Assembly: GCA_963813075.1 (NCBI GenBank)
Contig: CAWEXU010000030.1
Span: forward strand, 192,001 to 256,000
Reading direction: 5' to 3'
DNA from: Methanotrichaceae archaeon
GTDB lineage: Archaea; Halobacteriota; Methanosarcinia; Methanotrichales; Methanotrichaceae
Length of the DNA: 64,000 bases
Positions 16,263-64,000 of the stretch are shown here, in pieces; the first letter of the stretch is position 1; each line of letters starts with the position of its first letter. A program made the position numbers and the translations under genes. The notes below the pieces were generated by a model. It made no database searches, was not told the DNA's origin, and worked only from the letters and a program-made list of their open reading frames with translations.

Positions 16263-16506
16263 GAATCATCGTTCCTCTCTATAGCAGATTCCATCTTTCC
16301 AGGGAGCTATTCATAAATTGTGAAGATGGATCCCAGTTAAAAAATCCTTCCATCCAGAATTGGTTTTATCAGCTTATGAATTACTGAAATGAAACAATTC
16401 TGTATAAATTCGATCTTAAGGTTCCATACCATTTATACAGCAAAAAGATCAACTAATAAGGCAATTGGATGGTAAATAATTGGCCATCATCCTGAGGATT
16501 GTTCAA

Positions 16507-19897: not shown

Positions 19898-20610
19898 TTA
19901 TGGCGTTTCCGCTAATGATCCGGTATGCTTAAGGATCCTTGGCGGCGACGGTGATGTTAACGTCGTTGACTACACTGCCGGTAGACGCCTGGCTGTCGGT
20001 TGTGGCGGAGTCTGCGGTGGCGGTGATGTTGATCACAGTCTGCAGGTCATCCACGATCATGGCCAACTTGTTGTCGACGTTCAGGATCTTGGCTTCCTCA
20101 CGGCTGTCGTAGTCGTATATTCTCTGGCTGGTCTGGTTGGTGGTCTGGCCGATGTAAGCGCCTTCCTTTACCCAAACGAGCTCGCCGTCAACTTCTTCCT
20201 GCTCCTTGAGGCCCTGGTTAGCGATCCAGGCAGCCTGAATAGCCTTGTTCCAGGTGAGGCCCTTTGCGCCTTCTTCACCAAGAGGCGGTCTCTGCAGATC
20301 CCAGGCCGGAGATCTTCTGGTTCATGACCTGATCGATTCTGGCGAAGCCAGCAACCCTGAAGACGCTGCCATTAGCGGCATCCTGGAACTTGGGTGTGAC
20401 AATGATAGCTGCGGAGAGACCCTCGTTTCCAACGCCGACCTTGTCGTTCTCCAGGTCCAACTCGTCAGCCACTCCGATCTTGACATCCTCGATCATCTGA
20501 TTATCAGTCTGGGTGATAATGTTTGCATAGCAATCTACACAAACCGGTACATCTGCACTTACTACTCCCATTGTCAGGAGAAGCATTAACGCTGCTAGAT
20601 ACTTCCACAT
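19898..20610 (-). CDS. Secreted Q/N-repeat protein, candidate major sheath (MspA-like) amyloid; frameshift near 20290
   Basis: Signal MWKYLAALMLLLTMGVVSA and strong SD. The shifted frame continues LGEEGAKGLTWNKAIQAAWIANQG... to a stop at 19929 (or 19898 after a second shift). Three IxQxxNQ repeats. The MspA identity is inference. Confidence 0.6.
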
Positions 20611-20734
20611 AGCTTTTTTGCCTCCTAATATTCCTTATGTAATTCTTCCCCAATCCATGGAAAGGACATGTTCCCTTCCCAGGTGGTCATACATAACTTG
20701 CACCTGTAATTTATTAAAGGAATAGGAACCATGC

Positions 20735-20817: not shown

Positions 20818-22296
20818 GTGATGCCATTGAATATGAAGCATCTCTTCATCTTGCTGATATGCAGTCTGGAGATCTCTTTAGCGGTAGCTGCGGAGGATCC
20901 CATGAGCCAGGAAAATTTGCAGTTCACGATGCCGCTCAACGGTGCCAATATCACCCATCAATACGAAAATCTGACCGAATGGGACTGGTTTGCCTCATTC
21001 TCCATCCAGGAGCATCCGGATGCCCTTGCATCATCAGTGCACGCGGAAGAGGTGGAATCGCTGCAATTCTCTATAAACGACCTCTTTGTGATGGAAGAAG
21101 GAGATGGTGGGATCCAGTTCCCGAAATTTGACTCATCAGCCTATAGCTATCTGCCAGAGATCGAAGAGGAAGGGTCAGGGATGAATGAGCTTCTCAGCCG
21201 CTCGAGCAGAAGCACAAGCTCTCCCGAACTGCAATATATTTATAAAAATAATAAAACCCAACAATGGCTGCTTGACTATAGCTCATCCATTGGCATGCTT
21301 GAGGAGAGCAGGATCGCTTATGCAGATAACGAAATTGTTGATAAATCCATTGCTAAGATCGGTGATATTGATCCTTTGAAAACGGAATTTGGGGATATGC
21401 TCGGAACAGGCTACTCCTCAGACCGTCAGCTGCTGATGCCGGAGCGAATTGCCCAGCTATATGAGACATCCCTTATGGCACCCCATAATGTTGGTTTAAT
21501 TCCCGCCCCAGAGGGAAATGATCAGATCCTGAATCCTTTTAGCGGCTCGTTTGATCCCCATACGATGGATGAACTCTCCAGCGCAGGTTACAGCTATATT
21601 CCTGAAACGCTCCCGTCCCCACGAAATAAGAAGGAGCTAAAGAATTATGCCATAGTTGTGGGGATTGATGAGTACAAGGACAGAATGAGCCTTCATACCT
21701 GCGCGAATGATGCCAGATCGATGGCAGATCTCATGGAAGAGATGGGCTATGATGTTGTACTGATCAGCGACCATACCAATGAGAAGCCGACTAAAGAAAA
21801 TATCCTGAACATGGCATTCGAGGAGATAAGAGAGAAGCCGAATGTGGGTAATGTGATATTTTATTTCTCAGGACACGGGGTGAAAGCGGAAAATGAAGTG
21901 TTCTATCTGATACCCCAGAATGCCAATGGAACTGTCTCCACCTATATCAGTGAGAGTGAGGTCAAAGAGCAGATCATGAGCTTTAAAAATTTTGCTATGA
22001 TCATCGATGCCTGCAATAGCGAAGGTCTGAGCCGGGCAATAGGAGATGGCCAGCTCATAATAGCCTCATCCATGTATAATGAATCCAGCAATGGAGAATG
22101 GACCGGTTCCATGAGCGTCTTCACCTCTTATCTGATCAAAGCGATCAGAGAGGAGAAGGAGAGAAGCAACCGAGTCCTCCTGCAAAGGTGCTTCGACAAG
22201 GCCCAGAGCGATACCGTGAGATGGTCCCAGAATCATCTGATCAGCCAGACCCCGGTGATTCTGGACAACACCGGTGGAATATATTACATAAACTAA
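20818..22296 (+). CDS. Secreted caspase-family (C14) peptidase
   Basis: Signal peptide, long acidic linker, then YAIVVGIDEY, NDARSM, FYFSGHG and IIDACNS (His/Cys dyad intact). Confidence 0.9.
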   Translation: MMPLNMKHLFILLICSLEISLAVAAEDPMSQENLQFTMPLNGANITHQYENLTEWDWFASFSIQEHPDALASSVHAEEVESLQFSINDLFVMEEGDGGIQFPKFDSSAYSYLPEIEEEGSGMNELLSRSSRSTSSPELQYIYKNNKTQQWLLDYSSSIGMLEESRIAYADNEIVDKSIAKIGDIDPLKTEFGDMLGTGYSSDRQLLMPERIAQLYETSLMAPHNVGLIPAPEGNDQILNPFSGSFDPHTMDELSSAGYSYIPETLPSPRNKKELKNYAIVVGIDEYKDRMSLHTCANDARSMADLMEEMGYDVVLISDHTNEKPTKENILNMAFEEIREKPNVGNVIFYFSGHGVKAENEVFYLIPQNANGTVSTYISESEVKEQIMSFKNFAMIIDACNSEGLSRAIGDGQLIIASSMYNESSNGEWTGSMSVFTSYLIKAIREEKERSNRVLLQRCFDKAQSDTVRWSQNHLISQTPVILDNTGGIYYIN

Positions 22297-25496: not shown

Positions 25497-25907
25497 ACTT
25501 TGCCTCCATATGAAGAAATTAATCTTCGCTCATAATATCTGATTGCTGAGACATAAATAGACACTAATTTCTAATCAGATCTCACAATCATAATTCCAAA
25601 TAATATATCATGTTCGTGTTTTATATATTTATTAATTGTTGATTATTTTTCCTTAATACGGGATTGATTTAGGGCGGAAATCAGAGACCATTGACATGGC
25701 AAAAAAAAAGGTCATTATGTATTAATTATAATAACAAATCCGTTATTCATTTTATGTTTTATAGTATATTTATAAAAGAAAATATCGATCATTATGAATA
25801 TATCCTCAGACAATTCTATTAAAAAAAATAGAGAGTTAGAGCACATGAAGATGCTCTAAATCCATTTAGCAGAGCCCTTTGCAGCCCCATGGCCCACAGT
25901 TTCGTTT

Positions 25908-28900
25908 TTATTTGAAATCGAGAGATAGGCTTCCGACATCAGAACTTGAGATGGCTCCGCTGGCATCCAGGCAGAGCACTTTGTATTCGTATCTTCCCGG
26001 CTCACCCCAGTTGATATCTGCTGGCAGGGCTACGCTCATCTGAGCACAATCGCCTGTGCATGCTCCTCCGGCATTCGTCACCTTCTGCTTCATTTCATTG
26101 CTGTACCTTGGCAGGCTGTAGTCTTTGCAGAACATGCGATCGCAGCCCTTTGCACATATTATAGGCAGACTGATGTCAGGAGCATAGGCATTGCATTCGC
26201 ATTCAACTATCACATTGCCCGTGGCAGCGGGGCATACCTTCGGTTGCGGGCTGCAGTCAACCGCGTAGCTGCCGCCGGTCACAAATCCCGTATTGGCATC
26301 ACTTGTCACACTACCAAGATCGATCTGAGGCATCTGGTCACAGACCTGGGAGCCTTTGCCCTGGCAGTTGGCCACAATCAGAGCCGCCAAATCCTCTTTG
26401 GTCAGGTCACAGCCAATAGTGATATCTTCCGCATAGGCCACACAGGAGCATATATCTGGCTCGCAAGCAGATATGACCTGTCCGGTGCAGGTGGATTCGC
26501 AATCCTCCAGATCCTCCAGGACCTCATATCCAGCACCTGCATGGCACAGAACGCTGTATGTATAGTCGTCTGCCAGCACATACCCCGTTTTCTGATCCAC
26601 TGGCCAGTCAGGGAACTGCCAATAAGGAGTCTCATCGCATTCCCCACAGGGTGCAGGGTTTGACTGCATGATAAAAGCTTCCATCTCATCCGGATACATG
26701 CACCCATCCTGCGACAGGCTGACCAGCTCGCAATTGCACTTCATGACCACGGTGATACTGACCGTTCCCTGGTCACAATCGCGGTCATCGTCGCAGATCC
26801 TGTAGTTGAAGCTATCTACGCCGCTCCACCCTCTGTCAGGGGTATAGGTGTATGTACCGTCGTCGTTAAAAACCACATCACCGTTTGCGGGATTCGTCAA
26901 CCTGGACCAGGTGTTGCCTCCATCCTCAGAGAGGTAATCGTTGTCTGCTGCACTTCCGCTCACCGGCTTATCCTGGCATGTGCTGGCTGTGTCGCTGACG
27001 GCAGTGGGAGCGTCGTCGATGCACTCTACTGTAATGATAACAGAGGCGGTATCGGAATCGCCGTCGTTATCGGTCAGAGCATAGGTGAAGCTGTCCTTGC
27101 CGCAATATTTCTCAGATGGGGTATAAGTGTATGTGCCATCTGGATTGAAGATCAGATCGCCATTTACTGGATCCGTCAGCTTGGACCAGGTGTTTCCTCC
27201 ATCATCGGATAGCTCATCGTTGCCTGATACGCTGCCGCTAACTGAAGTATCTTCGGTGGTTGAAGCTTCATCGTCGTTGGCCACCGGGAGGTCATTGACG
27301 CACTCAATGGTGATTACCACCTTTGCCGTATCGGAATCGCCGTCGTTATCGGTCAGAGTATAGGTGAAGCTGTCCTTGCCGCAATATTTCTCAGACGGGG
27401 TATAGGTGAATGTGCCGTCCGGATTGAAGATGCAGTCGCCGTTGACGGATCCGTCAGCTTGGACCAGGTGTTTCCGCCATCATCGGATAGCTCATCGTTG
27501 CCTGATACGCTGCCGCTAACTGAAGTATCTTCGGTGGTGGAAGCGGTATCGTCGTTGGCCACCGGCAGGTCATTGACGCACTCAATGGTGATTACCACCT
27601 TTGCCGTATCGGAATCGCCATCGTTATCGGTCAGAGTATAGGTGAAGCTGTCCTTGCCGCAATATTTCTCAGACGGGGTATAGGTGAATGTGCCGTCCGG
27701 ATTTACAGATGCCGTGCCGTGGGCGGGAGCCGGTTTTCATGGACCAGGTGTTGCCGCCATCATCGGATAGCTCATCGTTGCCTGATACGCTGCCGCTAAC
27801 CGGAGTATCTTCGGTGGTTGAAGCTGTATCGTCGTTGGCCTCCGGCAGGTCATTGACGCACTCAATGGTGATTACCACCTTTGCCGTATCGGAATCGCCA
27901 TCGATTATCGGTCAGAGTATAGGTGAAGCTGTCCTTGCCGCAATATTTCTCAGACGGGGTATAGGTGAATGTGCCGTCCGGATTTACAGTATGCCGTGCC
28001 GTGGGCGGGATCGGTTTTCATAGACCAGGTGTTGCCGCCATCATCGGATAGCTCATCGTTGCCTGATACGCTGCCGCTAACTGGTGTATCTTCGGTGGTT
28101 GAAGCCGTATCGTCGTTAGCCACCGGCAGGTCATTGACGCACTCAATGGTGATTACCACCTTTGCCATATCGGAATCGCCATCGTTATCGGCCAGAGTAT
28201 AGGTGAAGCTGTCCTTGCCGCAATATTTCTCAGACGGGGTATAGGTGAATGTGCCGTCTGGATTTACAGATGCCGTGCCGTGGGCGGGATCGGTTTTCAA
28301 AGACCAGGTGTTGCCGCCATCATCGGATAGCTCATCGTTGCCTGATACGCTGCCGCTAACTGAAGTATCTTCGGTGGTCGAAGCGGTATCGTCGTTAGCC
28401 ACCGGCACGTCATTGACGCATTCAATGGTGATTACCACCTTTGCCGTATCGGAATCGCCGTCGACATCGGTCAGAGTATAGGTGAAGCTGTCCTTGCCGC
28501 AATATTTCTCAGACGGGGCATAGGTGAATGTGCCATCCGGATTTACATATGCCGTGCCGTGGGCGGGGCCGGTTTTCAAAGACCAGGTGTTGCCGCCATC
28601 ATCGGATAGCTCGTCGTTGCCGGATACGCTGCCGCTAACTGGAAGTATCTTCGGTGGTCGAAGCGGTATCGTCGTTGGCCACCGGCAGGTCATTGACGCA
28701 CTCAATGGTGATTACCACCTTTGCCGTATCGGAATCGCCATCGGCATCGGTCAGAGTATAGGTGAAGCTGTCCTTGCCGCAATAGTTCTCAGACGGGGTA
28801 TAGGTGAATGTGCCGTCCGGATTTACATATGCCGTGCCGTGGGCGGGGCCGGTTTTCAAAGACCAGGTGTTGCCGCCATCATCAGATAGCTCATCGTTGC

Positions 28901-30148
28901 CAGATAGGCTGCCGCTAACTGAAGTATCTTCGGTGGTTGAAGCTTCATCGTCGTTAGCCACCGGCAGGTCATTGACGCACTCAATGGTGATTACCACCTT
29001 TGCCGTATCGGAATCGCCGTCGACATCGGTCAGAGTATAGGTGAAGCTGTCCTTGCCGCAATATTTCTCAGACGGGGTATAGGTGAATGTGCCGTCCGGA
29101 TTGAAGATGCGATGCCGTGGGCGGGCTCGGTTTTCAAAGACCAGGTGTTGCCGCCATCATCAGATAGCTCATCGTTGCCGGATAGGCTGCCGCTAACTGA
29201 AGTATCTTCGGTGGTAGAAGCGATATCGTCGTTGGCCTCCGGCAGGTCATTGACGCACTCAATGGTGATTACCACCTTTGCCATATCGGAATCGCCGTCG
29301 GTATCGGTCAGAGTATAGGTGAAGCTGTCCTTGCCGCAATATTTCTCAGACGGGGTATAAGTGAATGTGCCGTCCGGGTTTACATATGCCGTGCCGTGGG
29401 CGGGCCTGGTTTTCAAAGACCAGGTATTTCCACCATCATCGGATAGCATATCATTGCCGGATAGGCTGCCGCTAACCGGGGTGCCTTTGGCGGTTGCCGC
29501 TGTGTCATCAACGGCATCGGGCACACCATCTGCACAATCTCTGAGGATTATCTGTCCACAGCGGGATTGTGTTCCCGAGCAATCTATGCAAAATGAATAC
29601 GTTCCCGCCACAGGACGGCCGTTTTTATCCAGGTCGACATCGTCTAGATCGATGAGTGCGGTGACATCTCCGCATCCAATACAACCCGCGCCTGCCTCTT
29701 CGAGGATATCTCTAATATCATCTAGATCCGCAGGCAGACAGATAGGATCTATGCTGGGAATATTGGTCAAACATGAGCATGATATTTGGAGCTTGGCTGT
29801 CGACGGGTACTGTGCCTTACATTCGGCACTGGTGGCATTATACTTGAATTGCACATAGGTGCCCTGCGGGATATTCGGGGATGGCGAATAGACAAAAGAT
29901 CCGTTTGCCGCAACCTTTATGAATCCATATTTGGGATCGATCGTAATCGATTCAGGATCCAGAACTGCAACCGCTTGCGCATCGTTTGCCAGAATTCCCT
30001 GGCTTTCGGGAACCACTTTTATAACCCCGCATTGGGCGTAATATAGTTCGTCCCGGATAAACCAGGGGCATTTAGCTGATGAGAGAGATGAAACTAAAAT
30101 TAATAGAATTGATATAATAAGAACACGTTTAATCCATGAAATACCCAT
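25908..30148 (-). CDS. Large (~1400 aa) Cys-rich adhesin-like protein, paralog 3, with ten cadherin-like (tandem-95/Big_9-type) repeats; multiple frameshifts
   Basis: CPWFIRDELY N-terminus, repeats PVANDD..T.EDT.VSGSVSGND..DGTFTYTP..G.DSFTYTLTD.DG, and a C-terminal Cys-rich region matching the paralogs. Confidence 0.8.
26750..29525. repeat. Tandem repeat with 279-bp unit: nine near-identical copies plus one divergent copy
   Basis: Anchor GAAGCTGTCC at 27087, 27366, 27644, 27925, 28205, 28484, 28764, 29043 and 29321. Confidence 0.95.
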
Positions 30149-30310
30149 GACATCTGCCTCCGTCCAAGCCATAAGTAGTTCTGCATCCTATTAAGCAGAG
30201 ACGAATAGTTGGTGCGGATGACAGTTAATGGCTTTAAGTTCCACTCGACTACCAATGGTATGCTAACTTCTTATCAAGGCAGCGCAAAAAAATTAAGGTT
30301 CACATCATCT

Positions 30311-31887: not shown

Positions 31888-33159
31888 TCAGCGGTAAAGC
31901 TTCCAGATACCAGTCTTATCACCGTTTCCTAAAGCGCGCTTCTCGCGGGTGTAAGAGTGCATAACTTGTCCGGTATCTTTAGAAAATTCTTTCTTGCCGT
32001 AGAGATCTCCCAGGCCCAGGGTATGCCCCATCTCATGCAATAGTACCGATTCTACGTCGACGTCCTTCTTATTGGTGCGATCCGTGCGCCATTTGTAGTT
32101 TGAATTCATGACCAGATCGGACTCAAGAGCGCTGTAGTACCCATCAACCTTTTTCGAGCTGTAGTAGGTTCTGGCATAGGCCAGCACATTGCAATTGGTC
32201 TTTAAAGGCTGCCAGTTGATAGTATTTTTCTTGTTGTATCGGTCAGCTGCTACCTTAGAATCTAGTGTGACCAGGTTGCTGTCAGCAAACAGATTCTGGT
32301 TTGATGCCCCATCCCAGGTATTCGAGGCCGACTCGATTGCTTTCTTTACTTCCCCGGTTTTCAGACCCTCTTTTGCCAGGACCTTATCATCTTTCAAGAC
32401 CCACTTTAGCTGAGGATCTTTTGTATTCCACCGGTAACCCAATAGAGTATAGGCAGAGGATCTTCCTCCAGAGGAGGTTGTCACCGGGCCGGTCAATTCC
32501 CTGGATAGATCGCTCTCGGCCCCTTTTTTGGCATTTGAGGCGATCAGGCCAAAGCTTCCCTCTCCATCGTTGGAAAGGCCCTCTACCGACATGGCCACGT
32601 CACCGGAGGCTACGAATTGCATGCTCTCGCTGTCAAGCATTTCAACACCCAAGGCCTCCACATTGCCGGACATGGCCGCATGGTCGCCAGCTCCGGCATA
32701 TACCCCTGCCGAAAGATCGCCCTGGCCATCGAAACCGCTTGATATAAACATCTTATTCTCCGGAGAATCAGCATAATAGGCTATTGCACCATAGCTGCCG
32801 GACATAGCCGTGCCCTGGCTGACATAGGCACCACTATCAGATACACCGGCAGAGGCAGAGGTATGAAACTCTCCCGAGCTCTCCATATCCGAGCCCGCGC
32901 TCTTGCCGTTTGCATCGGTTGAAATCGATATGCTATTCTCTCCCGATCCGCTTGCGGTGAGGTCCCTGTTTATACCCCCGTCTCCCATTGTGGCTGACTC
33001 CACGAGGGTGGTGGAAACATCCAAGTCATAGATGGCGGACGATGAGACGGAATCTCCACCCTTCTGGGAGCTAAAACCAACGTTGATGCTGAGGGCAGGA
33101 GCGATTAAGCCATAGAAAAATATAGCTAAAGTTATGGCCGTTAAGTATTTCTTCATCAA
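31888..33159 (-). CDS. Secreted matrixin-like metzincin, paralog 1
   Basis: Signal, G/S-rich N-domain, HEMGHTLGLGD zinc motif and QVMH Met-turn. Confidence 0.9.
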   Translation of the reverse strand: MMKKYLTAITLAIFFYGLIAPALSINVGFSSQKGGDSVSSSAIYDLDVSTTLVESATMGDGGINRDLTASGSGENSISISTDANGKSAGSDMESSGEFHTSASAGVSDSGAYVSQGTAMSGSYGAIAYYADSPENKMFISSGFDGQGDLSAGVYAGAGDHAAMSGNVEALGVEMLDSESMQFVASGDVAMSVEGLSNDGEGSFGLIASNAKKGAESDLSRELTGPVTTSSGGRSSAYTLLGYRWNTKDPQLKWVLKDDKVLAKEGLKTGEVKKAIESASNTWDGASNQNLFADSNLVTLDSKVAADRYNKKNTINWQPLKTNCNVLAYARTYYSSKKVDGYYSALESDLVMNSNYKWRTDRTNKKDVDVESVLLHEMGHTLGLGDLYGKKEFSKDTGQVMHSYTREKRALGNGDKTGIWKLYR

Positions 33160-33896
33160 TTCTATTCCTCCTTTGCAGCAATAACTGATCTCTGGTGCCG
33201 ATACAATTCAGCACTCAATCAGCCAAGGTTCCATTATTATATGAATTGCTAGAACCCACAGAAGGTCATTTTGCCGAGATCTGTAAATAAGCTTTCCGCA
33301 AAGATTAAATACAGATAATGCGGGCAAGTAAATTAAAAAAATTCAGAAGTATTGAAGCCGGCAATAAAAATGTGGGCGAAAAGCCGCAAGTAATGCCTGA
33401 GTGGTTCTTCCAATTCCTGGCGATATCTTTCGCGAGCAGTAAGCTTACATTTTCTGGGCGGCCATTAGATATAATATAATTACAAAAAAATCACTATGCT
33501 GAGCAAACACAATAAAATCAGACTCAAATAAAAAAATGTCTATTTTTAATTAGCTCCAATAGCTTAAAACTGGCCTTCAGAATGATGCATTCACCGGCTA
33601 AAAGAGCCGATGCAAGATCTTATGATATCGAGAATTCATGAAATGAATGGATCCCTGGACCAAAGGGCATCAGCTTTCTCTTATTGCCCTGGATTAACCA
33701 CCAGGGGTATTTATCAGTATTTTTGATTCGGAAGCCACATAATTAAGATATTTCATTAGACACCAATTCTGATTCACAAAATCCTCTCGGGATTGGTTCT
33801 CCCAGTTAGATTATCATCCTTAAAAATATATATTTTCTTATAAAGGCTGATAAAAAAATATTTGTTTTATATTTTGTATTTTCTATTTTGTATATA

Positions 33897-35165
33897 TCAG
33901 CCATATAGCTTCCAGATTCCAGTCTTATCCCCGTTTCCTAAAGCGCGCTTCTCTCGGGTATAGTAGTGCATCACCTGTGCGGTATCATATGTGTACTCTG
34001 CCTTGCCATAAAGATCTCCCAGGCCGAGAGTATGACCCATCTCATGCAACAACACAGACTGGACATCAAGATCCCCCTTATTGATGCTATCCGTTCGCCA
34101 ATTGTAGTTTGAATTTAAGACCAGATCGGACTCAAGGGCGCTGGAGTAACCGTCAACCTTAGCCGAGCTGTAATATGTCCTGGCATAACCCAATACCTTA
34201 CAATTAGTGACTAAAGGCTTCCAGTTGATTGTATTCTTCCGGTTGTACCGGTCAGCAGTCACCAAAGGATCCAGTGTGACCAGGCTGCTGTCAGCAAATA
34301 GATTCTGATTCGATGCCGCATCCCAGGTATTCGAGGCCGACTCGATCGCCTTTTTTACCTCAACCGTATCCAGACCCTCGTTTTTCATAATAGGGTCATT
34401 CTTTAAGACCCACTTTAACTGGGGATCTTTTGTATTCCACCGGTAACCCAATAGAGTATAGGCAGAGGACCTTCCTCCAGTGGAAGTCGTCACCGGACCG
34501 GTCAATTCCCTGGATAGATCGCTATCTATTCCTTTCCTGGCATTTGAGGCCACCAGGCCGAAGCTTCCCTCGCCATTATTGGAAAGGCCCTCCACCGACA
34601 TGGCCACGTCGCCAGAGGCAACGAATTGCATGCTCTCGCTGTCAAGCATTTCAACGCCTAAGGCCTCAACATCACCGGATATCGCCGCATGGTCGCCAGC
34701 TTCAGCAAAGACCCCTGCGGAAAGATCGCCCCGGCCATCGAAACCACTTGATACAAACATCCTATTCTCCGGAGAATCAGCATAATAGGCGATCCCGCCA
34801 TAGCTGCCGGACATAGCCGTTCCCTGGCTGACATAGGCACCACGATCAGATACACCAGCAGAGGCAGAGGTATGAAACTCTCCTGAGCTCTCCAAATCCG
34901 AGCCCGCGCTCTTGCCGTTTGCATTGGTTGAAATCGATATGCTGTTCTCTCCCGATCCGCTTGCAGTGAGGTCCCTGTTTATCCCCCCGTCTCCCAGTGT
35001 GGCTGACTCCACGAGGGTAGTGGACTGGTCCAGGTCATAGCCGGCAGATGATGAAGCAATCTCTCCATTTTTCTCGGAGCTAAAACCCACATTGATGCCG
35101 AAGGCGGGAGTCATTAAGATATAGAAGAATAAAGTCAATGCGATTATAGCAAAACGTTTTCTCAT
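33897..35165 (-). CDS. Secreted matrixin-like metzincin, paralog 2
   Basis: Near-identical to paralog 1; HEMGHTLGLGD. Confidence 0.9.
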   Translation of the reverse strand: MRKRFAIIALTLFFYILMTPAFGINVGFSSEKNGEIASSSAGYDLDQSTTLVESATLGDGGINRDLTASGSGENSISISTNANGKSAGSDLESSGEFHTSASAGVSDRGAYVSQGTAMSGSYGGIAYYADSPENRMFVSSGFDGRGDLSAGVFAEAGDHAAISGDVEALGVEMLDSESMQFVASGDVAMSVEGLSNNGEGSFGLVASNARKGIDSDLSRELTGPVTTSTGGRSSAYTLLGYRWNTKDPQLKWVLKNDPIMKNEGLDTVEVKKAIESASNTWDAASNQNLFADSSLVTLDPLVTADRYNRKNTINWKPLVTNCKVLGYARTYYSSAKVDGYSSALESDLVLNSNYNWRTDSINKGDLDVQSVLLHEMGHTLGLGDLYGKAEYTYDTAQVMHYYTREKRALGNGDKTGIWKLYG

Positions 35166-35653
35166 TTCAATTCTATCCTCCTTTGCAATATAGACCGATC
35201 CTCTATTTGGTGTTGGATCAGTAGAGGTTGTCGTCACACGAAATGAAGAAATCCTCTGACGAATTCGTTAAATGTCGTTATATTTAATCTTTTCGCAGAT
35301 TTAGCTGCAAATGTAAGCCATCAATGGTAGATGAAATTGGAGAAAAATAGATATGCATAGATGTGTACGCCAAATGCCGTACAATGGCCAAACCGCCATC
35401 CTGTCTCCTGAGAAAGCAGCAGGAAATTGCAGGCGGTCGGTTGTAATTGGGCTCTATATTGAGGATAAATCGGTCGGAAAATTATTGAATTAAAAATTAT
35501 GCTTGAAGGCATAGAGCCTCATGCCTGCCGATAAATTCCAAAGCTGCTCCATATTTGATCGACAGGAATGGCCACCCCCCACAGGGCAGCCATGATGTTC
35601 AATCCTGCCCAGCATCTCGACTGCCAAGAGGGCATATGATCACTTACATACGA

Positions 35654-36637
35654 TCATCCATACAGCTTCCAGATCGCACTCTTATCACCATTTCCAAGAG
35701 AGCGCTTCTCGCAGGTATAGTTGTGCATCACCTGCTCATTATCAAACTCATACTCATCAAGGCCGTAAATATCCCCCAGCCCCAGGGTGTGGCCCATCTC
35801 ATGCAGTGCCACTGACTGAACATCTCTATCTTGAGAATTGCCGCTATCCACGCGCCAATCCTTATTAGAATTAAAAACCAGATCGGACTCTATTGCGGTT
35901 CCATATCCATCCACCAGCCGGCTCTTATAGTAATAGGTTCTGGCATATGCGAGCACATTGCAGTTGCTTCGCAAGGATTGCCAATTGATGGTATTCATCT
36001 TATTATAACTATCAGGTGCTACAGTTGGATTCAGAGTAACCAGATCGCTATCAGCAAATAGGTTCTGATTAGATGCATTATCCCAGGTATTCGCAGCCGC
36101 CTCCATTGCATTCTTTATATCTGTGCTGCTCAGACCTTCAGCGTCCATGATCTCATCGTTTTTCAGAACCCATTTGAGCTCGGGGTTCCTGGTATTCCAC
36201 CTGTATCCCAGTAATTTGTAGGCATCTATCCTTCCCCCACCCTCAGTATAATCCGGCCCAGCGAGGAGCGAGCCATTCTCCATCAGCATACCAGTCCCCA
36301 TCAAAAGATCGCCGGAGCTTGAAGCGACCTTTATTCCATCTGCTGTGATGCTGACATCCTGGCCCGCAGAGGTTATTCGGGTATTCACCTGAGGGTTATC
36401 TGTGGCCACAAAAAGCCCATTATGCCGGGCGATGCCTGATCCAACGATACTGGTCTCCGTCACCATGCCATTGGTCTCAGATTCCAGCCTTGTCCCTCTA
36501 TCCAGCTGATAATTTGACGAGGATGTGGCCACATCCCCCCCGCTTTCCGCACTGAAGCTTACACTGATGCTCATTGCAGGTGTCAAAAGACTGCATAAAC
36601 ATATCGCAGATAACAGAGCTGTGAGAAACGGCTTCAT
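35654..36637 (-). CDS. Secreted matrixin-like metzincin, paralog 3 (shorter N-domain)
   Basis: HEMGHTLGLGD, QVMH and the shared LLGYRWN..P.LKWVLK motif. Confidence 0.9.
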   Translation of the reverse strand: MKPFLTALLSAICLCSLLTPAMSISVSFSAESGGDVATSSSNYQLDRGTRLESETNGMVTETSIVGSGIARHNGLFVATDNPQVNTRITSAGQDVSITADGIKVASSSGDLLMGTGMLMENGSLLAGPDYTEGGGRIDAYKLLGYRWNTRNPELKWVLKNDEIMDAEGLSSTDIKNAMEAAANTWDNASNQNLFADSDLVTLNPTVAPDSYNKMNTINWQSLRSNCNVLAYARTYYYKSRLVDGYGTAIESDLVFNSNKDWRVDSGNSQDRDVQSVALHEMGHTLGLGDIYGLDEYEFDNEQVMHNYTCEKRSLGNGDKSAIWKLYG

Positions 36638-36909
36638 TTTTGATCCTCCTACTTGAGATACTGATTTAAAATAATTAGTGTTAAAGTTATTTAAATTTTT
36701 TGATCTGTTTGTCTTATGAGCACCGGTTGCATAAATAAATAGTACATACTTGAAATTAAACGATTTAGAATGGACCCGCCACTAATTTAAAAAATTAGCT
36801 TTTCCTGAAGACAGACCATATTTAAGTTTTCCGTACTTTTAGCACGTGACAATTCAGGCGTATTGTTAATCCATAAGACATATAAATGATGGCCATTAGT
36901 AAAGAGGTT

Positions 36910-36989
36910 AAAGGTAGATCTGACAGGAAAGCATTTGCCTCCATATAGTTGCCTCCTTATGGATCTATCTTCCCCAATGTGTTTTTTTT
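36910..36989 (+). ncRNA. Candidate ~80-nt small RNA with two anti-Shine-Dalgarno seeds
   Basis: TATA-like ATATAAAT at 36880-36887, closing stem AAGGTAGATC (36911-20)/GATCTATCTT (36962-71), two TTGCCTCC motifs in the loop and a T8 tract at 36982-36989. Confidence 0.5.
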
Positions 36990-37085
36990 ATATTTTATAT
37001 GATAAACTACTCCTCGGCCTGGAGACGTGGTTAGAATGGTGTCCACTGAAGCAGGAAGACGGTTAAAAAAGAAGGGATTATTTAA

Positions 37086-37439
37086 TTATGCTTTTTCCAT
37101 GCGGGATTTTAAGACCTCGTTGTATATGGTCTCTTCGAGTTCACTGATGCGACCGAGATTCTGATTCAACCTCTTTAATGCATAAAGCTTCTTCGCAGCC
37201 AATAACGCAAGAGTTATAGATATGAGGAGTATAATAGCCAGCAGTAAGATATATCCATTAATTATATCCAAAGCTCCTTTTTGATGTGAAAAGAGCATGA
37301 AAGCAAATGCATTAACTGAAACACCAAGCAGCGATGAAATAGATATTCCAATAATAAGAATAGAGAGCTGTTTTTTCCTCTGCTCCACGCGCTCCACCAT
37401 ATCATATACCGCATCAATCGAGGCTTTATTTTCCGTCAT
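37086..37439 (-). CDS. Small two-TM membrane protein
   Basis: Two hydrophobic helices flanked by charged helices; coupled to the upstream wHTH gene. Confidence 0.7.
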   Translation of the reverse strand: MTENKASIDAVYDMVERVEQRKKQLSILIIGISISSLLGVSVNAFAFMLFSHQKGALDIINGYILLLAIILLISITLALLAAKKLYALKRLNQNLGRISELEETIYNEVLKSRMEKA

Positions 37440-37441
37440 TC

Positions 37442-37759
37442 TCACTCCCTTGCCCACTCATTTAATACAAAGAGCTCATCATTGATGGTTTTGAACCATT
37501 CATATCTGGATTTGCCCAAGGGTGTAAGCTCATATACAATCACTTCCCTTGCCCCCCACGCCACTCGCTTCTCCTCTACATATCCGGCGTCTTTAAGCAT
37601 ATTGATATATTTCTCAGCCGAAGTTGTCTTCAGATTGGCGCACTGTATTATATGGGTCTTCAGCGCTCGCCCTTTTGATTGGCTCTTTTCAATGCACTCA
37701 AGAAGTTTTAGAACAATCTTGATTGCAGGCCTGTATTTCGCAACACCCATATAAAACAT
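37442..37759 (-). CDS. Winged-helix transcriptional regulator (HTH_45-like)
   Basis: LKTHIIQCANL..AEKYINML..YELTPLGK. Confidence 0.8.
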   Translation of the reverse strand: MFYMGVAKYRPAIKIVLKLLECIEKSQSKGRALKTHIIQCANLKTTSAEKYINMLKDAGYVEEKRVAWGAREVIVYELTPLGKSRYEWFKTINDELFVLNEWARE

Positions 37760-38423
37760 CCACCTTACAGCACTTAATAGGCTTCCATACCTTTAGTACA
37801 TCACATCTAGATCAAGAGTGTGTCTGCCCAGGTATATCAACCTTTATCGCTCATTATAGACCGAATCCAATCTATTGCTTATAAATCCACCCGAAGCTAG
37901 CATAGGATAAAACCACCCGAAATTGGAGAGGACTATCATCGAAAAACTAACTAAAATATTAACATTCTCATCAGTCCATGCTATCATAATTCATCGTCGT
38001 GATCGGCGATGGGATTTAATGTTGATGCAATTTTTCTCTGATCACAGGATACGCCCTGCATTGCAGGTTCATGCCTGAATGGCACTAATAGTTTATTTTG
38101 ACTAACATCATAATTAGAATCGCGAATACGTATTAATGTATATATGCGAGAAGCATTTCCTAATCCATGAATAGATAAGCCTTTTTGATATTGTTTTCGC
38201 AGAAAAATACCCATCTGCCACGATTGAATCAGGAGATTCACCTCTCCAAAGGCATGCAGGAAAATCGCATATAACGTGCCATGTGAGTTCAATTGGGAAT
38301 CAGACAATGCGATAGATTTATATGTAACTGTGATGCCAAGACAATATTGCTCGTTTAGAGATAAGCCTTCCGGAGAATATATAAATTTCGGGATGCAATA
38401 TAATTAAATAGTGGGGGAAGAGT

Positions 38424-38705
38424 ATGAAAAGAAGCAAAGATGCCATAATATCCCAAATCTTAGATGTCTGCGTTGAGGGCGCGAGCAAGACCAGGATCGT
38501 CTATCAATCGAACCTAAACTTCAGGACTGTGATCCCTTATATTGATTTGCTCACAAAAAATGAGCTGTTGGAGGTCACAACAAACAATAAATCATCGGTC
38601 GTTTTTACCACCACCCCAAAAGGGCTTAAGCTGCTAAAGGATTTCAAGAACATTCAAAGCGTCATTCCTGAAATCTATGACCTCACGGAAAAAGAGAGAG
38701 CTTAG
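38424..38705 (+). CDS. Winged-helix transcriptional regulator (HTH_45-like)
   Basis: MKRSK..II..IL, GASKTRIVYQSNLNF and TTPKG motifs. Confidence 0.9.
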   Translation: MKRSKDAIISQILDVCVEGASKTRIVYQSNLNFRTVIPYIDLLTKNELLEVTTNNKSSVVFTTTPKGLKLLKDFKNIQSVIPEIYDLTEKERA

Positions 38706-63736: not shown

Positions 63737-64000
63737 TTAGATGCACATCCCATATCATTTGTATATCAAAAAACCATGAGATATTGGATTCTAAAAGCTA
63801 TAAGCCTTTCCCTGTGCCCGCCCGGCGCATTGTGCAGAAATCATCCCGGCAAAAGCATGATCCCGCTACTCTGGATATATTTATAGCAGAGAAATGCTAT
63901 TTGAGGATGGATAATGGTTAAGGGCCGTTTCCTGCTCAACGACGGGCAGCCGTGGACAGTTGGATTGCACGAGATATGCATCAGAGGCGGTAAATTGGGA

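Follow-up and report, generated by a model that had tools for sequence, protein, structure and literature searches.

Few archaeal small RNAs (sRNAs) have known targets, and those of methanogens concern metabolism, according to excerpts of PMC5867862. The same excerpts describe sRNAs of Methanosarcina mazei which mask the Shine-Dalgarno (SD) sequence or ribosome-binding site (RBS) of mRNAs, and sRNA41, sRNA154 and sRNA162 are intergenic RNAs with anti-RBS loops that mask several mRNAs (excerpts of PMC5867862 and PMC3510493). The RNA predicted here is likewise an intergenic methanogen RNA with a putative anti-RBS loop, but it differs from these three in that i) their targets are genes of nitrogen and carbon metabolism, while its predicted targets encode secreted surface proteins; ii) its pairing would run on through a stem arm and a 3' tail; and iii) it is tied to an operon encoding a winged-helix (wHTH) protein and a 2-TM membrane protein. 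No sequence or Rfam relation to the three RNAs was found.

A second likeness is to RybB, MicA, MicL and the csgD-repressing sRNAs of enterobacteria, where a regulator-induced sRNA stops translation of abundant envelope or amyloid-related mRNAs (excerpts of PMC5730939). Unlike these enterobacterial RNAs, to which it has no homology, the present RNA is archaeal, has a wHTH protein in the place of sigma-E as candidate regulator, and is predicted to pair directly with the leaders of structural genes through a long near-perfect duplex instead of a short seed. In the open-access literature, including the accessible parts of PMC10470525, PMC11576556 and PMC13414033, no Methanothrix sRNA was found, and the conserved RNA family reported here is apparently previously undescribed. 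Judging from the sequences compared, it is probably a trans-acting sRNA which masks the RBS of amyloid-like and Cys-rich Ig surface genes.

The hairpin element and its distribution

The element was analysed in a 64-kb stretch ("the window") of a Methanotrichaceae archaeon (GCA_963813075.1, contig CAWEXU010000030.1, positions 192,001-256,000 of the forward strand; host genome G000, contig C30). It is flanked by a matrixin-like gene (35654-36637, minus strand) and a two-gene operon (37086-37759, minus strand) for the winged-helix protein (Pfam HTH_45) and the 2-TM protein, while the upstream neighbours of the sRNA differ among relatives. At 31888-36637 (minus strand) are three secreted matrixin paralogs in tandem (Peptidase_M10), whose N-terminal parts are long and beta-rich, and a secreted caspase-domain gene is located at 20818-22296. 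The parts of the element are as follows:

36871..36887, plus strand: BRE-like and TATA-like putative promoter (CCATAAGAC ATATAAAT), conserved in the alignment
36910..36989, plus strand: predicted sRNA of ~75-80 nt, its start placed by TATA spacing and its end by the U tract
36911..36922, plus strand: 5' arm of the outer stem, pairing with 36960-71
36925..36933, plus strand: inner arm AGGA-NN-GCA, predicted (MFE and consensus fold) to keep seed 2 sequestered; altered in single-seed copies
36934..36946, plus strand: seed 1 (anti-GGAGGCAAA) in the apical loop, from the alignment; unpaired 0.51-0.85 in two-seed copies
36949..36961, plus strand: seed 2 (anti-GGAGGCAA plus CATAAGGA block); TGCCTCC in 30/39 copies
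36960..36978, plus strand: 3' arm and single-stranded CCCC tail, complement of GGGGAAGA(TAGATC) in target leaders; CCC tail in 38/39 copies
36982..36989, plus strand: T8 tract, likely terminator by sequence; T-rich, variable and loosely conserved in relatives
36822..36944, minus strand: ORF of 40 codons, not upheld as a conserved gene; over 14 copies it measures 7-55 aa, shifts frame or lacks a start

A sequence-only reading of the window had recognised a TATA-like box, a 10-bp stem and a T8 tract, and all three were recovered: ATATAAAT is present at 36880-87, the stem (36911-20/36962-71) has nine Watson-Crick pairs and one G-U and lengthens to 12 pairs (36911-22/36960-71), and T8 is at 36982-89. 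The predicted fold is a single long hairpin, with the outer stem, an inner helix of AGGA-NN-GCA with seed 2, seed 1 at the apex and a free CCCC tail before T8. Of the two seeds that had been placed in the loop, seed 1 is mostly open, but seed 2 is predicted to be paired to 36925-33 (mean unpaired 0.72 vs 0.26). Folding strength was modest on its own (z -1.9 to -2.4). Rfam 15 at the gathering threshold returned 0 matches in the window and in eight relative loci (best local E 1.1), and a search of the host genome found no second copy of the RNA.

Conservation of the element was established computationally. In the alignment of relatives, the element and ~80 nt upstream of it were conserved and the flanks were not. 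A 451-nt query against 61 genomes found the core in nine relatives at E <= 3.5e-8 and in one further weakly, a covariance model matched in 14/59 genus genomes, and inspection of the surroundings of wHTH genes yielded further divergent copies. Moreover a sequence model run against 151 genomes of the class matched 52 at E <= 0.05; 18 of its loci and 12 further places were inspected, and those with stem, loop and tail were retained. The total was 40 copies in 34 genomes and nine genera of Methanotrichaceae, plus one metagenome contig (G117:C7 and G148 left uncounted); 39 of the copies (36 distinct), from 33 genomes and the metagenome contig, were aligned, the 40th being in G106. Among the sequence-model matches inspected, no copy was confirmed in genera g11, g12, g15, g16 and g20 or in other families; in family f3, 11/67 genomes gave weak matches (E 3e-4 to 0.05), one of which was inspected. 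Weak model matches in G021:C9, G025:C19, G118, G028, G005, G031, G032:C85, G100 and G034:C71 were dropped, as they had no hairpin or lay inside ORFs. A metagenome pattern scan returned 95 stretches, one of them a true copy (adjoining a wHTH gene) and the remainder chance.

Many copies have a single seed, and the two-seed form occurs mostly in the host's own genus. Several genomes carry two to three paralogous RNA copies whose loops differ (L024, G029:C16; L440, G104:C12; L439, G117:C28; L441, G162:C99), which suggests different target sets.

The strand of the RNA was likewise established computationally. In the core stem, 305/312 cells are paired over the 39 copies with two-sided changes at several positions, a count in which three pairs hold by construction as the register was set manually at the central TAG/CTA. 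The stem is asymmetric between the strands (36 G-U vs 2 A-C cells), indicating that it folds on the plus strand. Furthermore, folding z was better on the plus strand in 19/20 copies and MFE in 15/20, and an AT-run is found at the TATA position in 35/40 copies. Conservation of the stem in related genomes, the lack of which the sequence-only reading had named as refuting, was found over nine genera; a formal covariation test, run with the 11 close copies collected first, did not exceed shuffles (74/500). Contigs from four RNA runs of relatives covered parts of the flanking genes and not 36636-37005, which speaks neither for nor against a transcript. Taken from its sequence features, the sRNA would be an intergenic one with its own promoter and terminator.

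CsrB and RsmZ are protein-titrating RNAs, and the repeated GGA motifs that they carry have a likeness on the minus strand of this element. The functional RNA might be the minus strand (e.g., the 3' end of the wHTH operon), acting as a leader mimic that titrates a GGGGAAGA/GGAGGCAA-binding protein: the minus strand resembles a leader with tandem GGAGGCAA, the element is downstream of the wHTH operon in 12/40 copies, and minus-strand MFE is lower in 5/20. We consider this very unlikely, since i) among the 40 copies the wHTH gene is divergent in 14, convergent in 12, tandem in three and not within reach in 11, so that in the 14 divergent copies the operon cannot transcribe the minus strand; ii) G-U against A-C stands at 36:2; and iii) the putative promoter sits 5' of the plus strand. 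Unlike in CsrB and RsmZ, the strand favoured by the G-U asymmetry and by where the putative promoter lies is the one with CCUCC, the complement of the motif.

A still more improbable explanation, indeed a highly improbable one, is that the element is a 5' UTR left over from a deleted gene, a minus-strand gene for a small peptide, or a purely DNA-level site. An SD, an ATG and 40 codons do exist on the minus strand of the host genome, but in relatives this ORF ranges from 7 to 55 aa and is frameshifted or absent, and a stem with two-sided changes has been maintained over nine genera. In particular, the small peptide that had been raised as an alternative lost its footing on the 14 copies compared, among which the frame is not conserved: where ATG is kept the ORF has 40, 45, 11, 7, 49 or 55 aa, from TTG in four copies it has 7-20 aa, and in four copies no equivalent SD-plus-start is listed on the minus strand. 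Pfam had no match to the 40-codon ORF, and no ORF of at least 80 aa spans the element.

Complementarity to leaders of secreted-protein genes

Predicted target sites and the main target gene in the window are as follows:

20611..20654, minus strand: best predicted target site, in the leader of the amyloid-like gene, with three colinear blocks (20644-54, 20632-39, 20617-25)
19930..20610, minus strand: secreted beta-rich amyloid-like gene (MWKYL family), frame broken near 20290; the two frames match intact 224-aa relatives
25497..25511, minus strand: candidate target through the seed alone, RBS of Cys-rich Ig paralog 2 (13/13; rank 5 by alignment, 194 of 1666 by cofolding)
30149..30162, minus strand: RBS of the Cys-rich Ig paralog starting at 30148, weak candidate (GGAGGCAG; 9th percentile of background)

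The complementarities from which a trans-acting RNA had been proposed are present: seed 1 (36934-46) is a 13/13 complement of the RBS of Cys-rich paralog 2 (25499-25511), and seed 2 (36949-60) an 11/12 complement of the RBS of the amyloid-like gene (20618-29). The shorter matches claimed at 30155-61 and 18412-18 do exist as 7-nt matches, but that at 18412-18 is to an SD only. A longer match, absent from the earlier reading, joins 36968-78 to 20644-54 (11/11), and 36954-61 is an 8/8 complement of 20632-39, colinear with the seed. The seed 1 13-mer has three exact sites in the host genome, itself included. Outside the window, a 90-aa gene (G000:C20:+19482), putatively MC1 chromosomal protein-like, has an RBS that also matches seed 1 at 13/13 (cofolding rank 83). 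A Cys-rich paralog outside the window (G000:C30:455208, minus strand) has a leader with two tandem GGAGGCAA, as in G032 and G022, and this leader could pair both seeds at once.

A genome-wide ranking of targets, of the kind that the earlier reading had suggested, was made over the host genome with rough scripted gene calls. It put first the amyloid-like gene's leader, with the start at 20610: rank 1 of 2614 genes by duplex energy, rank 1 by alignment and, by cofolding, rank 1 of 1666 (-26.2, against a mean of -4.8 with sd 3.1). The top rank is not significant alone, being equalled by 4/60 and 1/60 shuffles and by 5/20 and 2/20 shuffles.

A hairpin lies just upstream of the RNA site in this leader (20659-20682, minus strand), with similar ones in relatives. 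This would fit a role in which the RNA pairs with leaders and yet stabilises or activates the mRNA, e.g., by opening the leader hairpin or masking a cleavage site, and sRNA154 is described as stabilising some of its target mRNAs (excerpts of PMC5867862). Every predicted duplex, however, covers the SD or the start codon, and we regard activation as unlikely compared with masking of the RBS.

In the genus, members of the two target families were taken from genus-wide protein searches, and their leaders were compared with the 1667 SD-bearing leaders of the host genome. GGAGGCAA was found in 11/14 amyloid-like and 18/22 Cys-rich Ig leaders (vs 5/1667 in the background), GGGGAAGA in 11/14 and 2/22 respectively (vs 3/1667), and a GATAGA/ATAGATC-type block in a further 8/22 Cys-rich Ig leaders (vs 17/1667), counts which overstate independence as the families were chosen after the earlier reading had named them, some query genes came from motif-fetched regions, and paralogs are related. 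Pairing scores in the top 1% were reached by 8/14 amyloid-like and 19/22 Cys-rich Ig leaders.

Complementarity to distant RBS regions is conserved, and it co-varies, in some carriers and not all. Co-variation of RNA and leader across genera is the strongest line of evidence: i) In G081 and G025 the RNA tail is changed and the anti-SD seed decayed, and the new tail is complementary to a stretch with SD and start codon in each of two tandem secreted genes (15/16 and 15/16 in G081; 15/16 and 14/16 in G025); ii) In G151 the loop is not related to the common seed, and the neighbouring secreted gene carries its complement in the SD-to-start spacer; iii) In G084 the RNA has an extra base, which has its match in a secreted gene at a distance of 4.5 kb; iv) In G093 the tail differs, and two out of three paralogs nearby, which also carry GGAGGCAA, match the difference. 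Comparable secreted-gene neighbours occur in G029 and G129. When the leaders of nine RNA-leader pairs were each shuffled 200 times, 0-1 shuffles did equally well. This test is partly circular, as several pairs were found by RNA-derived patterns; paralogs and kin are also not independent. In cross-pairing, the G081 RNA was the best partner for its own leaders and among the worst for others; the G151 leader scored -16.4 with its cognate RNA vs -16.8 with the G000 RNA, and the G129 leader -13.6 vs -17.7.

The exact patterns tried gave no clear target in G013, G034, G065, G033, G064, G085, G083, G090 and several more carriers, and G006 and G077 (56% and 68% complete) carry leaders while the RNA was not found in them. 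The carriers with no clear target, together with the non-significant host-genome rank, fit an explanation in which the main target is elsewhere and the leader matches reflect SD complementarity and ancestry, the RNA having arisen as an inverted leader copy. The seed has CCUCC in common with the 16S tail, and in G117 one of six inspected among 39 GGAGGCAA-ATG sites belongs to a secreted gene. This explanation is nevertheless quite unlikely, as two unrelated protein families plus further ones keep both blocks with variable spacers between them, and as the lineage-specific changes in G081/G025, G151, G084 and G093 are matched. The first suggestion, that a plus-strand non-coding RNA acts in trans through anti-RBS seeds, is backed by conservation, strand asymmetry, leader complementarity and co-variation. 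The proposed role in coordinating the island was not supported: the RNA goes with the winged-helix/2-TM operon, and matrixin, caspase and other island genes are without motifs. The predicted targets make up part of the surface genes and do not extend to the island as a whole.

The term "amyloid-like" denotes a resemblance. The MWKYL family model, of low confidence, is all-beta with long strands (pLDDT 60; a single-sequence fold reached only pLDDT 31), and Foldseek gave a weak match to FapC (E 7.5e-3, TM 0.12). Fold searches with the target model gave no clear match, a PDB sequence search of the target gave no match, and Atlas matches of targets were below 0.9 (DUF6322 and HfaD, leads only). 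The target proteins matched no Pfam or NCBIfam family, 13 proteins showed no Pfam curlin match, and hhalign found no homology between the MWKYL and G029 target families. Several targets have a signal peptide and are Asn/Gln-rich with repeats and a C-terminal DP, and the Cys-rich family has Big_9/cadherin-like domains. Signal peptide, long beta strands and, in several targets, Asn/Gln-rich repeats are traits in common with archaeal SH proteins, MspA and FapC/curli. SH proteins, for which a signal peptide and a core of two beta sheets with six strands each are diagnostic, are however reported in all Methanotrichales (excerpts of PMC11576556), whereas MWKYL was found in about 9/59 genus genomes; a motif search in the text supplements of that paper found nothing. 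Frames are broken in the amyloid-like gene (19930-20610) and in a long Ig-repeat gene (25908-30148); the corresponding frames are intact in G022, G032 and G023 and also broken in G077 and G079, and the breaks are probably assembly errors.

The winged-helix operon and its operator-like motif

The features that link the RNA to the neighbouring operon are as follows:

37442..37759, minus strand: winged-helix protein, candidate regulator (HTH_45, Pfam E 2.6e-9)
37086..37457, minus strand: 2-TM membrane protein, co-operonic with wHTH, candidate sensor (hydropathy; conserved QKG loop)
37783..37806, plus strand: operator-like motif in the wHTH promoter; core motif in 20/23 wHTH loci, one cut by a contig end and two without
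36829..36852, plus strand: operator-like motif (RTAC-N5-GTAC type) upstream of the putative sRNA promoter; rank 5 in the genome, 14.8 bits

Synteny and a common motif were also established computationally. A wHTH gene is within reach of 29/40 RNA copies, while in G005, G026 and G008 wHTH is present and the RNA was not found. The winged-helix protein is Sso10a-like below the cut-off (NCBIfam 41 bits vs 60), and the 2-TM protein matched no family above cut-off. With an operator PWM trained on wHTH promoters only, the best site lay 80-95 nt before the stem in 33/40 RNA copies. Moreover all 12 convergent copies have a site of their own, 83-86 nt before the stem (4.3-14.8 bits).

Other matches to the wHTH-promoter motif occur at 16422-16445 (plus), 20704-20727 (minus), 63748-63771 (plus) and G000:C31:202089 (11.9-21.5 bits), several of them before secreted-protein genes and one ~95-120 nt upstream of the amyloid-like gene; these scattered matches may outline a regulon. 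Upstream of the wHTH operator is a second conserved AT-rich BRE/TATA-like block (37829-37850), whose spacing from that operator equals the spacing of the sRNA TATA from its own; in the divergent layout, this position is that of the sRNA promoter. A second HTH_45 gene (38424-38705, plus strand), above the Sso10a NCBIfam cut-off, is divergent from the first.

A possible silencing circuit at the cell surface

A full circuit for envelope control throughout the family can be drawn from these parts, in which a membrane sensor and a winged-helix regulator drive a two-toehold strand-displacement sRNA that acts directly to silence functional-amyloid and adhesin subunits and is re-tuned, lineage by lineage, to new surface genes; we put it forward tentatively, as a possibility that is somewhat doubtful as a whole. 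The steps that follow belong to the reading held above as probable. The 2-TM protein would be the signal input to the wHTH protein, which would probably control the RNA promoter by binding the operator common to both promoters. The hairpin would be transcribed on the plus strand from the BRE/TATA promoter and would offer open toeholds at two places, in the anti-GGAGGCAA loop and in the CCCC tail at its 3' end. From there, pairing would nucleate in vivo on two blocks of the 5' leader in mRNAs for secreted surface proteins of two kinds, the amyloid-like ones rich in Asn/Gln or in beta structure and the Cys-rich Ig ones that resemble adhesins. The 3' arm would then swap its partner, from the 5' arm to the mRNA, to give a duplex of 20-35 bp over the SD (in G081 and G025, one predicted to span SD and start codon), and the duplex would repress the target by blocking translation initiation.

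The RNA comes with predicted targets backed by co-variation between genera, a candidate regulator and a candidate operator, which makes each step directly testable. If the masking of surface-gene RBSs is true, there would be a link between RNA regulation and the cell surface of archaea, and it would extend to amyloid-like proteins that bear on aggregation in digesters and sediments. If the full circuit is true, archaea would have a counterpart to the sigma-E/RybB and curli sRNA circuits, one that would offer a handle on how the main acetate-using methanogens form filaments and granules.
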